DNA of 64,000 nt, taken from NCBI GenBank assembly GCA_902826455.1, contig CADEEV010000001.1:298983-362982 (forward strand), given 5' to 3'. The notes beneath the pieces were generated by a model. It was not told the DNA's origin. It saw only the letters and a program-made list of their open reading frames with translations, and did not search any database. The first letter of the stretch is position 1. The number at the start of each line of letters is the position of its first letter. Shown here one piece after another: positions 7,207 to 50,576 of the stretch. The position numbers were made by a program, and so were the translations under genes. Source of the stretch: an uncultured Acidobacteriota bacterium. GTDB taxonomy: Bacteria; Acidobacteriota; Vicinamibacteria; Fen-336.

Positions 7207-8019
7207 TCACGGCGGCAACATCTCTCGGATGGCCGCGGCGAGATCGCCGGCCTGCGTCTTCTGGATGTTGTGGCCGCCCTCTTCGTACACACGGGTCCGG
7301 GCCCGGGGCATCGCCCGTGCGAGCTCCTCGCCGATCGCGCGCTCGATCAGGCGATCGTCGTTCGCCCAGGCGAGCAGCGTCGGCGGCAAGGGAGCCGCGG
7401 CGGCGCGGCGCAGCGCGGCGAAATCGACCGCGGCGATCGCTCGGAAGTGCCGGGCGAACAGCTCGGGCCCCATGGCTTCGACGTTCGGGAAACGGTTCCT
7501 GCGGTAGCGCTCCCGGGCGACATCGGTGAAGACGCCGCGCAGGCCGGGAATCGCGAACGCATGGCTCAGCAGGCCGAAGCGCCACGGGCTCATGCCGAGG
7601 CCGCGATGCGTCCTGAAGCCGATGCTCGCCGCGAGGACGAGGGCGCGGATCCGTGCGGGGTTCCGCGCGGCCAGGATCAGTGCGGTGCCGCCACCCATCG
7701 AATGGCCGAGGACGCCGAAGCGCGCGAGCCCCAGGTGGTCGGCGAGGGCGAGCACCACGTCCGCGCGCCCCTCCAACGTCGCGATGGCCGCGCGAGAAGG
7801 CGCGCTCGCCCCGAAGCCCGGCAGGTCGACGCGCACGATGCGCCGGTCGCGAGAGAGCTGCGGCGCGAGATAGCGGAAGTCGCGCACGGAGCCCGGCACG
7901 CCGTGCAGGGTGATCAGGGCCGGCGCGTCCCGCGGCCCTTCGTCCACGAACGCGAGCGGCCCGTGCGGAAGCTGGAGGAACTGCGGATCGAGGTCGCTGG
8001 TGGGGAGCGCCTCGGTCAC
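7207..8019 (-). CDS. Alpha/beta-fold hydrolase
   Basis: 270 aa. GHSMGG nucleophile elbow and a HG oxyanion motif near the N-terminus. Confidence 0.8.
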   Translation of the reverse strand: MTEALPTSDLDPQFLQLPHGPLAFVDEGPRDAPALITLHGVPGSVRDFRYLAPQLSRDRRIVRVDLPGFGASAPSRAAIATLEGRADVVLALADHLGLARFGVLGHSMGGGTALILAARNPARIRALVLAASIGFRTHRGLGMSPWRFGLLSHAFAIPGLRGVFTDVARERYRRNRFPNVEAMGPELFARHFRAIAAVDFAALRRAAAAPLPPTLLAWANDDRLIERAIGEELARAMPRARTRVYEEGGHNIQKTQAGDLAAAIREMLPP

Positions 8020-8873
8020 TTCCTGGGCTTCAGCGAGGCCATCAGCTCCTTGGCCATGGCGCGATCGAGATGGGCGAAGCCGGCGAACTGCTGGCCGGAG
8101 AACAGCGCCTCGGCGCCGTCGATCGTGACGAGATCGCCGGTCTGGTACGGGCTCGCGTCGCTCAGCAGGTACGCGAGGAGGTTCGTGAGCTCCCAGTGCT
8201 CGCCGAAACGCCGCGAGGGCACGCGCCGCAGCGCCTGCTTCTCCATCTCGGAGCCGGGAAGCAGCCGGCTGAACGCGCCGTCAGTGGGGAACGGCCCGGG
8301 GGCCACGGCGTTGAGCCGGATGCCGTAGGTGGCCCACTCGACCGCGAGCGAGCGCATCATCGCGAGGACGCCGGCCTTCGCGGCGGCCGAGGGCAGCACG
8401 AACGCCGAGCCGTTCGTGACGTAGCTCGTCACGATCGACACGACCGCGCCCTTCGCCTGGCGCGCGATCAGCCGCTTGCCGAGCTCGATCGTGCAGTGGA
8501 AGGAGCCGTAGAGCACGATCTGGACGACGGAGTTGAACGCGTTCGGCGAGAGATCCTCCGACGGGCAGAGGAAGTTGCCCGCGGCGTTGTTCACGAGCTG
8601 GTTCGCCGCTCCGAGCTCGGCCTCGACCCGGTCGAAGGCCTGGCGCACGGCCTCGGGATCGCGGATGTCGCAGGGCACGGCGAGCGCCGTGCCGCCGGCG
8701 TCGCCGATCGTCTTCACGGTCTCGGCCAGGGGCTCCGGCCGGCGCCCGAGCACCGCGACCTTCGCGCCGAGCGACGCGAGGCGCAGCGCCGTCGAGCGGC
8801 CGAGGCCGCTCCCGCCCCCGGTGACGATCGTCGTCTTGCCCTGCAGCAGGTCGGGACGGAACGGATCGTTCAT
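8016..8873 (-). CDS. SDR-family oxidoreductase (2,4-dienoyl-CoA reductase-like)
   Basis: Start reassigned to MNDPF; TGGGSGLG NAD(P)-binding motif; SDR catalytic region. 4-bp overlap with the downstream hydrolase. Confidence 0.85.
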   Translation of the reverse strand: MNDPFRPDLLQGKTTIVTGGGSGLGRSTALRLASLGAKVAVLGRRPEPLAETVKTIGDAGGTALAVPCDIRDPEAVRQAFDRVEAELGAANQLVNNAAGNFLCPSEDLSPNAFNSVVQIVLYGSFHCTIELGKRLIARQAKGAVVSIVTSYVTNGSAFVLPSAAAKAGVLAMMRSLAVEWATYGIRLNAVAPGPFPTDGAFSRLLPGSEMEKQALRRVPSRRFGEHWELTNLLAYLLSDASPYQTGDLVTIDGAEALFSGQQFAGFAHLDRAMAKELMASLKPRK

Positions 8874-23609: not shown

Positions 23610-24022
23610 GGATCCCCCGACAGGAAGCCGACGCCATGGTCGCGCGCGCCCTCGAGGGCTACCCCTTCGAGGTCTGCGGCGTGTTCCTCGGCCGGGGCGG
23701 CGACGTGCGGCGTGCCGTCGGCGTCGCGAACCGTGAGACCGAGCGGCCGCGCGTGCGCTATCAGATCGCCCCCGCGGATCTCATCCGTCTCCAGCGCGAG
23801 GGCGAGGCCGAAGGCCTGGAGATCGTGGGCTACTATCATTCCCATCCGGATCATCCCGCGCGGCCCTCGGAGACCGACCGGAGCGTGGCCGCGGGCGGGT
23901 TGTCCGACGGGGTATTCCACGTCGTGATCGGCGTCGAGCAGGGGATCCGGGGCACGCCCACGGCGTGGGTCTTCCGCGACGCGGATCAGGCGTTCCATGC
24001 CGAGCCGCTCGAGATCGAATAG
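23606..24022 (+). CDS. mec: JAMM/MPN+ metalloprotease Mec
   Basis: EVCGVFLG and the HSHPDHPARPSETD (H-x-H-x7-S-x2-D) JAMM zinc motif. The GTG start overlaps the cysM stop (GTGA). Confidence 0.85.
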   Translation: MRIPRQEADAMVARALEGYPFEVCGVFLGRGGDVRRAVGVANRETERPRVRYQIAPADLIRLQREGEAEGLEIVGYYHSHPDHPARPSETDRSVAAGGLSDGVFHVVIGVEQGIRGTPTAWVFRDADQAFHAEPLEIE

Positions 24023-46032: not shown

Positions 46033-48543
46033 ATGGCCGACCTGCGCACCCTGCGCTACGCGCGTCTCGCGTCCGCCGCGATCGTGCTCGCGTTCCTCCT
46101 CGCGCTCGAGTTCTCGGCGGCGTCGCGGCCCACGCTGCAGCTCGCGAGCGACGCCTTCCAGCTCGGGCTGTGCCTGGTCTCCGGCGTGTTGTGCCTGGCC
46201 GCCGCGCGCCGGGGAAGCGTGCCGGCCCGCCGCTTCTGGCGCCTGCTCGGGGCCGGCGCGCTCACGTGGACCGCCGCCCAGGCGCTCTGGACGTGGCGCC
46301 TCGTGGGCCTCGATCCCCAGAAGCTCCCGCTCCTCGACGACCTGCTGTTCTGGCTCGCCCTCGTGCCCTGGCTGCTCGCCGTGGTGGCGCGCCCCGACCG
46401 TCCGCGCGTCCGCGCCACGGGCCTGTGGTTCGACGCGACCCTCGTCGCCGTCCTGGCGCTCCACGTCTACGCGTACGCCATGGCCGGCAGCCTCCAGGCC
46501 GGGCGTGGCGCCATCTTCGTCGCCTGGCCGCCGGAGTTCTGGTACGTCCGCGACGGGGCGTTGATCGGCTCCTACGTCTGGCTGGTCGTCACCGCGGCGC
46601 CGCCCTGGCGCGCCGTCTTTGCCCAGGTGCTCGCGGCGATGGCGATCCTGCACGGCGGCGACACGTTCAGCAGCCTCTTCATCCGCGAGGGCTCGTACCA
46701 CCCCGGCCTGCTGGACCTCCCCTGGACCGCGCCCTTCCTGATCCTGGCCCACGCGGCCGCATCCTTCCGCCCGGGTCCGGGCTTCGACGTTGCGCCCTGG
46801 GAGCCCGACTGGCGCCGGACCCGCCGCGGCATGCTCACGGCCACGGTCATCGTCGTGCTCGTGCCCGGGACGCACCTCGCATACCGCTCGTGGATCGAGG
46901 CCGGCGCGGGCCCGTTCGCCCTCCAGGGCGCCCTCGCGCTCGGCACCACGCTGCTGATCGGAGGCTTGCTGGCGCTGCGCCAGTGGCAGCTGCTGCGCGC
47001 GTTCCAGGAGGCGCAGGAGGAGCGCGAGAAGGCGCTGCGGCGCTCCGAGGAGCGTTTCCAGAAGGCCTTCGAGGCGAGTCCCGCCGCCCTCAGCCTCAGG
47101 ACGCGCGCCGACGGCCGCTACCTCGACGTCAACGAGCGGGGCCTCGCCTTGCTCGGCTACGCGCGCGCGGAGATCGTGGGCCACGCGGCGGAGGAGCTCG
47201 GCATCTGGATCGAGCCGGCCGCGCGGGTGGCTCTCGAGCAGCTGGCGCGGGAGGAAGGCAGCGTCCGCGACTTTCCGGCGCGCTTCCGCACCCGCTCGGG
47301 GGAGGTGCGCGAGGTCATCAGCTCCGTGGAGACCCTGGAGATCGACGGCGTCCCATGCCTGCTCGAGCTCACCGAGGACGTCACCGAGCGTCGCAAGCTC
47401 GAGGAGCGCCTGGTCCAGTCCCAGCGCCTCGAGTCCATGGGCCGCCTGGCTGGCGGCATCGCCCACGACTTCAACAACCTCCTGGGCGTCATCCTCGGCT
47501 ACTCGTCGCTGGTGCTGAGCCGCCTGCCCGAGGACCACCCCGTGACGGGGAAGGTCGCGCAGATCCAGCGCGCCGGCGAGCGGGCGGCGGGCCTGACGCG
47601 GCAGCTTCTCGCCTTCAGTTCCCGCCAGGTCCTCGTGCCGACCGTCGTGGACCTCGCGGTCCTGCTCCACGACACGGAGAAGATGCTCGGGCGCCTCATC
47701 GGCGAGGACATCGAGCTCGCGACCTCGGTGGCGCCGGGACTGGGCCGCGTGAAGGCCGACCCGAGCCAGATCGAGCAGGTCCTGATGAACCTCGTCGTCA
47801 ACGCGCGCGACGCGATGCCCGAAGGCGGCCGCCTCGGCATCGACCTCCGCGACGTGACCGTCGAGAGCCCGCTACCCCTCGAACGGGGCGTCCTGCCGCC
47901 CGGGGCCTACGTCGTGCTGGCCGTCCGCGACTCCGGCGTCGGCATCAGCGACGATGTGCGCGATCACCTCTTCGAGCCGTTCTTCACCACCAAGGAGCGC
48001 GGCAAGGGCACCGGCCTCGGCCTCGCGACCGTCCACGGCATCGTGGAGCAGAGCGGCGGCCGCATCTCGGTCGAGACGACGCTGGGGGCCGGCACCACGT
48101 TCCGGGTCTACCTGCCGCGTGTCGACGACGCCGCCTCGGATGCGGGCCGGGCGCCCGCTGCAGCCACCCCGCGCGGATCCGAGACGCTGCTGCTCGTCGA
48201 GGACGAGGATCCGCTCCGCGAGATGACCCGCGAGATCCTGACCGAGGGCGGCTACGTGGTCCTCGAGGCCGAGAACGGGAGCCGCGCCCTCGAGGTCGCG
48301 GCGGCCCACGCGGGCCCGATCCACCTGCTGCTGACCGACGTGGTCATGCCCGGTCTGAGCGGCCCGAAGACGGCCGAGCGCCTCACGGCGCTGCGGCCCG
48401 GGACCCGCGTGTTGTTCGCTTCGGGCTACACGGCGGGGGAGCTGGGGCCCCACGGCGTGCTCGACCCCAGCGTCGAATTCCTGCAGAAACCCTACACGCC
48501 CGACGATCTGCTGGCGCGCATCCGCGACGTCCTCGATCGCTGA
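46033..48543 (+). CDS. Hybrid sensor histidine kinase/response regulator (multi-TM N-terminus, PAS, HisKA, HATPase, REC)
   Basis: H-box (IAHDFNNLL), N/G1/G2 boxes ([22 protein letters not shown]), receiver domain with the phospho-acceptor Asp motif ([10 protein letters not shown]). Start at ATG 46033 within the 1051 aa track ORF. Confidence 0.85.
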
Positions 48544-48562
48544 CGCGCGCCAGCGGTCTCGC

Positions 48563-48904
48563 TCAGGCGCGCACGACGGACGGCTGGGCCGCGGGCACGA
48601 GCTGCTGCAGCTTCTCGAAGGAGACGAGGCCCACGCTCTGCTCCACGAGGGCTCCCTTGCGGAACACGAGCAGCGTCGGGATGCTCGAGATCCCGAAGCG
48701 GCCGGCGATGTCCTGGCTCTCGTCGACGTTGAGCTTGCCCACCACCACGTCGGGCCGCGCCTCGGCGAAGCGCTCGACGGTCGGGGTGAGCAGCCGGCAC
48801 GGCGCGCACCACTGGGCCCAGAAGTCGACGAGGACGGTCTTGTCGGACTTGAGCACCAGGGCATCGAAGTTCTGGGACGTCAGGGTCACGGTCTTGTCGG
48901 ACAT
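48563..48904 (-). CDS. trxA: Thioredoxin
   Basis: WCAPCR active site (FWAQWCAPCRLL). Start reassigned to MSDKTV. Confidence 0.9.
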   Translation of the reverse strand: MSDKTVTLTSQNFDALVLKSDKTVLVDFWAQWCAPCRLLTPTVERFAEARPDVVVGKLNVDESQDIAGRFGISSIPTLLVFRKGALVEQSVGLVSFEKLQQLVPAAQPSVVRA

Positions 48905-48948
48905 CGGATCACCTCGAATGGAAATTGGAATGAGAACGGCCGAACGGC

Positions 48949-49281
48949 TCAACGCGACTGGCGGAACACCAGCTCCAGCAATTCCTCGTAGACCCGGTCG
49001 GCACGCTGGGTGCCGTGGGCCTGATCGACGCAATGCTTCAGGTGATTCCGCATCAGCCCGCGCGCCACGCTGCGGAGGGCCTCCTGGACCGCGGCCATCT
49101 GGGTGAGGATCTCGGGGCAGTAGCGCTCTTCCTCCAGCATCCGCTGCAGGCCGCGCAGCTGGCCCTCGATCCGCCGCAGGGATCCCTGGCTCTTCGCCTT
49201 GATCTCCGCGTCCACCACCGAGCGGGCGCTCCCGTCGCGGACCTCGCAGGCGCAGGCCGAGCCCGCCCCCAGGTCCACCAC
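48949..49281 (-). CDS. CsoR/RcnR/FrmR-family (DUF156) metal/stress-sensing transcriptional repressor
   Basis: RIEGQLRGLQRML...YCPEIL...NHLKHC gives a C-H-x3-C sensing triad (CsoR-like). Start moved from the track ATG 49320 to GTG 49281, which is preceded by AGGAGG at 9-nt spacing; this also frees the upstream operator palindromes from the coding region. Confidence 0.75.
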   Translation of the reverse strand: MVDLGAGSACACEVRDGSARSVVDAEIKAKSQGSLRRIEGQLRGLQRMLEEERYCPEILTQMAAVQEALRSVARGLMRNHLKHCVDQAHGTQRADRVYEELLELVFRQSR

Positions 49282-49320
49282 CGGCGCTTTCCTCCTCGCC
49301 CGCCTGGCCGCTTCCTTCAT

Positions 49321-49357
49321 ACCCTCCAGGGGTAATATAGGTACCCCTCAGGGGTAT
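49321..49357 (-). promoter_or_regulatory. Two tandem CsoR-type GC-rich palindromic operators upstream of csoR-trxA
   Basis: ACCCTCCAGGGGT (49321-49333) and TACCCCTCAGGGGTA (49342-49356) resemble described CsoR operators (ATACCC-N-GGGTAT-type). Confidence 0.5.
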
Positions 49358-49358
49358 G

Positions 49359-50576
49359 TCAAGGGGCCAAGGGGAGGCGCTTCACGATCACGGCCGTGGT
49401 GTCGTCCTCCCAGGGCGCGCCTCGCCCGAAGGCCTGCACGGTGTCGAACAGCGCCTCCAGGATCTGCTCGGCGCTGCCCTCGGCGTGGCTGCGCACCACG
49501 GCCTTGATGCCGTCCTCGCCGAAGAACTCCCCGGCGGCGTTGCGCCGCTCCAGGACGCCGTCGGTGCACAGCACCAGGATCGCGCCCGGCTCGAAGCGCG
49601 TGTAACCGCGCCGGAAGCGCACCTCCGGCAGCGGGCCGATCACGGTGCCCCCGGTCTCCAGGGAATGGACGCCCTCGCGGTCGAACAGGAGCGGCGGCGG
49701 ATGGCCCGCGTTGACGTAGATGAGCGTGCCGTTCACCTCGAGCTCGCCGTAGAAGACCGAGATGAAGCGGCTCGACAGGTTGCTGCGATGGATGACGCGG
49801 TTGAGCCGCTCGAAGACGTGGGCGACCTTGAACTCCTTCTCGATGCCCATGCGCAGGCCGGTGACGACGTCGCGCACGAGCAGGGCGGCCGGCAATCCGT
49901 GGCCGCTCGCGTCGCCGATCGCGAGGCCCAGCATCTCGTCGTCGAAGGGGTGGAAGTCGTAGAAGTCGCCGCCCACCTCCTCGGTGGCCTCGGAACGGCA
50001 CGCGATGTCGAAGCCGGGGAAGTCGGGCGGGTCCTCGACGAGCAGGCTCTGCTGGATCTCCGCGGCCTGGCGCAGGCTGCCGCGCGTGCGCTCGTCCAGC
50101 AGCCGCGAGCCGAGCGCCGCACGCACCGTGTTGAGGGCGAAGTCGAGCTCCTCCATGGCCCAGCCGTCGGCCAGCAGGAAGAACAGCACGTGACGCCGGG
50201 GCCGGCGGCCCACCACGATCGCCGCCGCGGGGCCCGCGGGCAGAATGCCGGTGGAGAAGGGCGCGTCGGGCTCCGTCGGGCGATTGAAGACGTAGACCCG
50301 ATGCCGGAACACGAGCTGCAGCGTCGGGTTCGTGGGATCGAGGGTCTCCGCGGCGCCGCCCGGGTCGCCCAGGCTGCGCAGCAGCGTCAGGTCGTCGCGC
50401 TGCTCGGCGTAGAGGAACGCCGCGCGCAGCCGGAGATCCTCGCGGAGGGTGCGGAAGAAGTCCTCCACGAATGCCTCCAGCACGCGGCTCTGGGGCTGGC
50501 TGGTGTCGAGGCCGCTGAAGAGGCTGTCGAGGCGGCGATAGAGCGGCTTGGCCTCGAGGCGTGGCGGTGTGGCCAT
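49359..50576 (-). CDS. PP2C/SpoIIE-family Ser/Thr phosphatase with an N-terminal sensor (GAF-like) region
   Basis: PP2C motifs (GGDFYDF, GDASGHG, DGVLE). Start reassigned to MATPPRLEAK. Confidence 0.8.
   Translation of the reverse strand: MATPPRLEAKPLYRRLDSLFSGLDTSQPQSRVLEAFVEDFFRTLREDLRLRAAFLYAEQRDDLTLLRSLGDPGGAAETLDPTNPTLQLVFRHRVYVFNRPTEPDAPFSTGILPAGPAAAIVVGRRPRRHVLFFLLADGWAMEELDFALNTVRAALGSRLLDERTRGSLRQAAEIQQSLLVEDPPDFPGFDIACRSEATEEVGGDFYDFHPFDDEMLGLAIGDASGHGLPAALLVRDVVTGLRMGIEKEFKVAHVFERLNRVIHRSNLSSRFISVFYGELEVNGTLIYVNAGHPPPLLFDREGVHSLETGGTVIGPLPEVRFRRGYTRFEPGAILVLCTDGVLERRNAAGEFFGEDGIKAVVRSHAEGSAEQILEALFDTVQAFGRGAPWEDDTTAVIVKRLPLAP

Follow-up and report, generated by a model that had tools for sequence, protein, structure and literature searches.

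A csoR-trxA pair behind two putative tandem CsoR-type operators: a probable copper-responsive operon in an uncultured Acidobacteriota bacterium

Among Gram-positive bacteria, CsoR is the textbook repressor responding to Cu(I); it normally controls a pump and a chaperone. This study describes a csoR gene (48949..49320, minus strand) followed by a thioredoxin gene, trxA (48563..48904, minus strand), in a 64,000-nucleotide (nt) stretch of contig CADEEV010000001.1 from an uncultured Acidobacteriota bacterium of the class Vicinamibacteria. This whole stretch is hereafter called the window, and positions are counted from its first letter. With a probability that we put at about 0.7, the two genes form a copper-responsive, self-regulated operon in which TrxA would maintain thiols under copper stress. 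In the survey of the superfamily by Fakhoury et al., Cu(I) sensors are defined by an x-C-H-C fingerprint plus an allosteric Tyr, CstR proteins by x-C-x-C with an Asn wedge, RcnR by H-C-H-H and FrmR by P-C-H-x (PMC8643695). For CsoR of Streptomyces lividans, the operator consensus is ATATACCCCTNAGGGGTATAT, with TAC-N9-GTA as essential feature and two tetramers per site (PMC3902906). The window locus was compared with these descriptions at the levels of protein, promoter and gene neighbourhood.

The csoR product, 123 amino acids (aa) when read from ATG 49320, matched Pfam family PF02583 with 92.8 bits (cutoff 22.8, E=1.8e-26). Its closest solved relatives were the CsoR proteins of S. lividans (4adz, 6e-16) and Geobacillus (4m1p), and an exact look-up of the 123-aa form returned no recorded sequence. 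An AlphaFold2 model displayed a disordered basic tail (residues 1-37) followed by helices at 38-63, 69-102 and 104-122. Cys68 (codon 49117-49119), His93 (49042-49044) and Cys97 (49030-49032), which together span 49030..49119, lined up residue by residue with the ligands of the S. lividans and Geobacillus proteins. Tyr67-Cys68, His93-x3-Cys97 and Glu113 were invariant in 30 homologues (alignment A1); likewise, the Y-C-H-C pattern was found in 119 of the 120 best homologues, and His93 in all 120. We take Glu113 to be the equivalent of Mycobacterium tuberculosis E81 and S. lividans E122, and Tyr67 that of Y35 and Y74, respectively, the Glu match coming from the alignment together with the residue numbering of these proteins.

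The window protein displayed the fingerprint of Cu(I) sensors, i.e. Cys-His-Cys at positions X-Y-Z and no W ligand (no His occurs in residues 1-45). Three other classes were considered and discarded: CstR, since His93 stands where CstR proteins have Asn; RcnR/InrS (H-C-H-H or H-C-H-C), since the N-terminal 45 residues are devoid of His and position Z is a Cys; and FrmR, since residue 2 is Lys (ATG form) or Val (GTG form, see below) instead of Pro, Z is again Cys and model NF008464 scored 38.7 against a cutoff of 133. Lacking an N-terminal His and Pro2 and retaining His93, the protein fits the Cu(I) class alone. A preliminary description of this DNA had left the choice between CsoR, CstR, RcnR and FrmR to a fingerprint alignment, and the x-C-H-C obtained here settled it against the RcnR and FrmR types. 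Judged by its residues, the window regulator is a Cu(I)-type CsoR and not a CstR, RcnR or FrmR.

The second group of arguments came from the DNA upstream of csoR. The region 48300-49700 contained a sole sigma-70-like site, TTGACA-17-TATATT, with 11 of 12 matches as compared with 0.0 expected in shuffled sequences. Both hexamers lie on the minus strand: the -35 (49357..49362) was located by the promoter scan, and the -10 (49334..49339) by the scan and by an alignment of related promoters. TTGACA was unchanged across 10 of these promoters. Two dyads, which read ACCCTCCAGGGGT (49321-49333) and TACCCCTCAGGGGTA (49342-49356) on the plus strand, are embedded in this promoter. Operator 1, TACCCCTGAGGGGTA (TAC-N9-GTA, 49342..49356), occupies the first 15 of the 17 base pairs (bp) separating the hexamers. 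When ACCCTCCAGGGGT is widened by one base on each side it becomes a 15-mer, TACCCCTGGAGGGTA (49320..49334), which corresponds to operator 2 (TAC-N9-GTA with a mismatch in one arm); on the minus strand its first base is the T that closes the -10 hexamer and its last the A of ATG 49320, with the predicted transcription start in between. Both dyads matched the type-2 operator of Streptomyces (TAC-N9-GTA / TACCCCTNAGGGGTA) and operator 1 agreed with the core of the S. lividans consensus at every position.

These sites were unique in the window. ACCC-N5-GGGT occurred twice in 64 kb (1.02 expected), both times within a single 37-bp stretch, and a search for TACCC-N5-GGGTA with at most one mismatch recovered the same two sites alone. 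A third operator-like site, TACCCCTTCGAGGTC (23660-23674), displayed two mismatches, lies inside long open reading frames (ORFs) and was set aside as probably due to chance. The centres of operators 1 and 2 are 22 bp apart, i.e. two helical turns, a spacing that was kept in related loci L081-83, L085-87 and L168-170. Moreover, the block TTGACA-TACC.C...GGTA-TAtAtT-ACCCC...GGGTAT was conserved in nine related promoters (alignment A2), while the flanks and the dyad centres varied; conserved arms amid variable flanks and centres are the pattern expected from selection on operator half-sites. Match and conservation together argue for two putative tandem CsoR-type operators in the csoR promoter.

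Downstream, csoR and trxA are separated by exactly 44 nt on the same strand (48905..48948). This spacer contains the ribosome-binding site (RBS) GAGGTGA (48909-48915, minus strand), also present 5' of trxA in L081, L085, L087 and L168, and a scan of its 44 nt found no promoter and no terminator. With a common strand, a short gap, a single promoter-like site and no terminator between them, both genes appear to be co-transcribed. The core of the preliminary description was thus borne out: it had announced a CsoR-family repressor with a C-H-x3-C triad (PF02583 and the Cys68/His93/Cys97 alignment agree), a trxA gene 44 nt away on the same strand (its coordinates proved exact) and two tandem CsoR-type dyads upstream, which are present, match the S. 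lividans consensus and are kept in nine relatives.

Copper was further indicated by the gene neighbourhoods of relatives, which occurred in metagenome-assembled genomes of Acidobacteriota and Gemmatimonadota. A P1B ATPase gene directly adjoined csoR on the same strand in 72 of 87 loci, either upstream (copA>csoR, 51) or downstream (csoR>copA, 21). In the established P1B-1 classification, CPC, N-x6-YN-x4-P and M-x2-SS form the Cu(I)/Ag(I) signature; these motifs were recorded in 63 of 73 csoR-adjacent ATPases. TACCC-N5-GGGTA sites were found 5' of the first gene in csoR/copA pairs and were rare elsewhere. The CsoR family is accordingly a copper-sensor family by neighbourhood as well as by residues. 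No HMA-type CopZ appeared among the neighbours with Pfam annotation, although no targeted search for it was made; YHS domains were present in the cop clusters of relatives. Some of these are N-terminal and combined with HMBD domains in CopA (L081, L084 and L172), and a free 57-aa YHS protein encoded between csoR and copA (L084:2221-2394) may be a chaperone candidate. In two loci copA was frameshifted and called as at least two genes (L081:5366-7731 and L169:4593-6744), by assembly error or pseudogenization.

Four arrangements were observed around trxA. The order SpoIIE-csoR-trxA was shared by the window, L085/86, L087, L168 and the P0005 contig (the latter taken from its gene table). L081, L169 and L170 displayed SpoIIE-hyp-csoR-copA-trxA-multicopper oxidase, L172 copA-trxA-multicopper oxidase, and the outgroup L171 csoR-trxA in an unrelated neighbourhood; the oxidase gene lies 3' of trxA in L081, L170 and L172. 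Pairwise identities sorted the loci alike for CsoR and for thioredoxin (window clade, L170 clade and L171 as outgroup), so that the two genes were inherited together. copA was absent from the window clade and L171 and present in the L170/L172 clade, a pattern compatible with either loss or insertion. In view of these contexts, two suggestions of the preliminary description had to be reshaped. Of redox, persulfide or metal control, the metal option was retained and narrowed to copper (His at position Y, invariant Tyr and Glu, Cu(I) ATPase and multicopper oxidase neighbours) and the persulfide or CstR type was dropped; trxA is indeed the only downstream gene in the window, but it is no stand-alone oddity, its orthologues being regular members of cop clusters.

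TrxA (113 aa, active site W-C33-A-P-C36 at 48797-48808) matched TIGR01068 with 115.2 bits (cutoff 96.8) and contained the VDFWAQWCAPC and SIPT motifs. It has what characterizes a classical thioredoxin, namely a size of about 105-115 aa, W-C-x-P-C, the buried Asp and the cis-Pro (I-P-T), and it was 42% identical over its full length to E. coli TrxA. At the active site Ala takes the place of the usual Gly, while most clade members have Pro there. This tight clade, delineated by protein search at an identity of at least 59%, displayed WC[P/A]PC in all 16 members (WCPPC in 12, WCAPC in 4), while WCGPC prevailed among the remaining thioredoxin matches (76 of 104). All eight contexts that could be retrieved for the WC[P/A]PC clade were CsoR, CopA or multicopper-oxidase clusters. 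When metagenomes were scanned with TrxA peptides as seeds, the matches were generic thioredoxins of at most 57% identity, and the scan was uninformative for the clade. A single match was encoded beside a CsoR-family gene (L103, an unrelated organism of low GC content); there, the regulator gene, with G-C...H-x3-C and devoid of the Tyr, is followed 130 nt on by a canonical WCGPC thioredoxin gene (L103:97-847), an independent regulator-thioredoxin adjacency.

A literature search on CsoR with thioredoxin, and on thioredoxin in cop operons, found neither link described. In a 2020 review of copper homeostasis in bacteria, the thioredoxin-fold proteins mentioned (Sco, TlpA and CopG) are all periplasmic (PMC7558416). 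From its clade and contexts, the window TrxA can be regarded as a specialized cytoplasmic thioredoxin of the cop-linked WC[P/A]PC clade. Membrane-anchored TlpA/ResA-like WCPPC proteins of about 190 aa are encoded beside csoR-copA in Terriglobia (L005:3224-3853, L029:1953-2567 and 7670-8329, L031, L043, L067 and L073). These genes were rejected as evidence of CsoR control over thioredoxin-fold genes since the operator lies 3' of them, and CsoR probably does not control them.

A working model can be proposed on these grounds. Apo-CsoR tetramers would bind both type-2 operators, which must lie on the same DNA face since their centres are two turns apart. From the -35/-10 spacer (operator 1) and the transcription start (operator 2), they would keep RNA polymerase off this near-consensus sigma-70 promoter. 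Cu(I) coordinated by Cys68, His93' and Cys97', and relayed through Tyr67 and Glu113, would lower the affinity for DNA and lead to derepression. The induced TrxA would then most likely re-reduce thiols that are oxidized or blocked in copper stress; its targets might include Cys ligands of the copper machinery, such as the N-terminal C-x-C (CxC) tail of CsoR described below or the metal-binding domains of CopA. A gene for the Cu(I) pump presumably lies in another part of this lineage's genome.

Several observations weigh against this model. A P1B ATPase gene was absent from the whole window by tblastn, hence one defining element of CsoR context is locally missing. In the RLXR motif, through which S. 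lividans CsoR contacts DNA, the first Arg (R54) is replaced here by Ser47 (codon 49180-49182), which might weaken DNA binding; the window clade shares this Ser, the L081 clade has Cys and the remaining family members keep Arg. The CxC tail could shift metal or redox selectivity beyond what can be read from the sequence, and ATG 49320 stands only 13 nt past the -10 hexamer, which would leave a leader of about 5-7 nt devoid of a properly spaced RBS. Finally, the role attributed to TrxA was deduced from gene neighbourhood alone.

Nothing in the window CsoR is more distinctive than its CxC tail. Cys23-Ala24-Cys25 (codons 49246..49254, minus strand) belongs to the low-confidence AlphaFold2 tail, 13-15 residues ahead of helix 1. 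All 30 homologues of the alignment, which reaches down to 50% identity, kept the motif, and it was recovered in 115 of the 120 best ones (with Gly as central residue in 98 and Ala in 17) and in 75 of the 87 loci, in both phyla. No description of an N-terminal CxC in CsoR proteins was found in the literature. This tail could contribute further Cu(I) ligands or serve as a redox switch. A further, rather doubtful proposal is that the tail and the co-inherited WC[P/A]PC thioredoxin function as a pair: the tail would equip the classical Cu(I) site with additional thiolates or with a disulfide switch, and TrxA would either reset the sensor or serve the export machinery as dedicated reductase or chaperone. 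If true, this would be a copper sensor wired to the thiol-redox state, for which no description among CsoR proteins was found.

Whether the tail is translated had been questioned in the preliminary description, wrongly so: the Cys-Ala-Cys codons are located 3' of both candidate starts and are translated either way. The same description had placed the start at GTG 49281, 9 nt downstream of AGGAGG (49291-49296; 49279..49296 for the whole, minus strand). Both elements are present and the gene call of the source record is the corresponding 110-aa GTG form (P0241). Comparison with relatives spoke otherwise. L087 displayed Pro-Ile-Asp at the GTG position and, past the ATG that adjoins the operator, no further ATG, GTG or TTG ahead of the invariant CxC. 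AGGAGG reads as two in-frame Arg codons, as the GTG does as Val; it is AGC-AAG in L085 and is missing from L087 and L168. ATG-AAG was kept throughout the window clade, and the N-terminal stretch, Lys/Arg-rich family-wide, changed its length by whole codons only. This comparative evidence points to ATG 49320 rather than GTG 49281. In the outgroup L171 (6560-6610), operator 1 was degenerate and operator 2 contains the called GTG start of csoR, some 9 nt past a -10 hexamer TAATAT, which suggests a leaderless or near-leaderless mRNA. Short-leader initiation may be used by the csoR genes of the window clade and L171.

Three other explanations of the locus were weighed against copper-induced thiol maintenance. 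By analogy with known thiol switches, the tail might be a redox- or Cu(II)-sensitive device, the oxidation of which would free CsoR from DNA until induced TrxA resets repression. This feedback is compatible with copper sensing and would account for an invariant motif in a flexible segment ahead of helix 1; moreover, csoR and the thioredoxin clade stayed together over a divergence reaching about 55-60% identity, and they are sole operon members in two lineages. There is a precedent in the CsoR-family protein TTHA1953, which loses DNA binding through disulfides driven by Cu(II) or H2O2 (PMC10318464). Yet, CxC-containing CsoRs are common in Gemmatimonadota and Terriglobia loci without this thioredoxin clade nearby, so the tail needs no operon-encoded thioredoxin, and a tail disulfide is itself hypothetical. 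We consider such a feedback unlikely.

A CstR-like sensor of persulfide or thiol stress driving thioredoxin could be invoked as well, given a cargo that is a thiol reductase, a window without exporter and two sensing Cys common to CsoR and CstR (PMC8643695). It is nevertheless the least probable explanation, His93 being kept where CstRs display x-C-x-C with the Asn wedge, the Tyr/Glu allosteric pair being invariant, and the neighbours comprising Cu(I) ATPases and multicopper oxidase instead of sulfide-oxidation, rhodanese or persulfide dioxygenase genes. Alternatively, csoR-trxA might be the relic of an ancestral csoR-copA-trxA-multicopper oxidase operon that lost copA and the oxidase gene, leaving a pair without distinct function. 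The upstream side, with SpoIIE 5' of the unit, is indeed the same as in L081 and L170, where copA stands between csoR and trxA and the oxidase gene follows, and the wider family nearly always adjoins copA; the genes 3' of trxA differ between the window and these two loci. However, the pair is intact, its promoter, operators and RBS are kept in at least four diverged members (87-91% CsoR identity), and L171 carries csoR-trxA in an unrelated neighbourhood, so that csoR-trxA may represent the ancestral state, into which copA was inserted. A relic is thus very improbable, and copper-responsive thiol maintenance was preferred.

As for the surroundings of the unit, a SpoIIE/PP2C phosphatase gene (49359-50576, minus strand, PF07228) lies immediately 5' of csoR. 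Its TGA stop (49359-49361) falls inside the TTGACA of the csoR promoter, which may reflect a functional link or mere read-through transcription. The same gene was found directly 5' of csoR in L081-L083, L168-170 and the distant Acidobacteriota loci L006 and L029. An ORF of 110-148 aa without Pfam match is intercalated between SpoIIE and csoR in L081 (4600-4932), L082 (1006-1452) and L083 (4582-4953) and is absent from the window. On the other side, a hybrid histidine-kinase gene is convergent with trxA and ends 19 nt past it. A stem-loop 3' of trxA was rejected as terminator, being no better than shuffled sequence (z = -1.15), and an Rfam scan of the whole 64-kb window matched no family.

Taken as a whole, csoR-trxA is a modestly new variant of a well-known system and no surprise in kind. 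Its interest lies in a large uncharacterized CsoR subfamily of Acidobacteriota and Gemmatimonadota, two major soil phyla, with two extra invariant Cys in a flexible tail. In one lineage this repressor was co-inherited with a cytoplasmic thioredoxin clade seen solely in copper clusters, and in some genomes thioredoxin is its sole operon partner. If TrxA is truly copper-induced, the pair would show on genetic grounds that copper resistance includes thiol repair in the cytoplasm as an integral part, and would offer a simple two-gene system for the interplay of copper sensing and thiol redox; if not, this is one more CsoR locus.

Several described systems resemble this locus in part. The top NCBIfam match of the window CsoR was RicR of M. 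tuberculosis (NF052430), with 76 bits, far under the cutoff of 175, indicating no orthologue, and in another phylum. RicR is reportedly a CsoR-type Cu(I) repressor with a regulon of non-pump genes, as Festa et al. are said to have described in 2011; that regulon is not known to include a thioredoxin. The CstRs of Staphylococcus aureus, Enterococcus faecalis and Streptococcus pneumoniae share the PF02583 fold, two sensing Cys and type-2 operators with two tetramers (PMC8643695). They differ by an Asn at the position of His93, by the absence of Cu(I) allosteric residues and by their control of sulfide-oxidation genes. In RsrA-sigmaR-trxBA and OxyR-grxA, a thiol sensor induces a reductase able to reset the sensor; the likeness of csoR-trxA to these circuits is an analogy only, redox activity of the CxC being hypothetical. 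Thioredoxin-fold proteins tied to copper handling are also found in ScsBCD. Likewise, the thiol-disulfide or thioredoxin-fold proteins TlpA, Sco and CopG are genetically tied to copper homeostasis (PMC7558416). All of these, ScsBCD included, are periplasmic or membrane-anchored, in contrast to the window TrxA, a 113-aa cytoplasmic TIGR01068 member inside a putatively CsoR-controlled unit. The closest parallel is CsoR of S. lividans (csoR, copZA1 and copZA2 operators), which shares Y-C...H-x3-C together with the Glu, the operator core (TACCCCTNAGGGGTA / TAC-N9-GTA) and, in the reading preferred here, autoregulation. The window locus distinguishes itself from it by tandem operators 22 bp apart within one promoter, by a basic N-terminal tail with CxC and a Ser for the first Arg of RLXR, and by its cargo, a thioredoxin instead of copZA.

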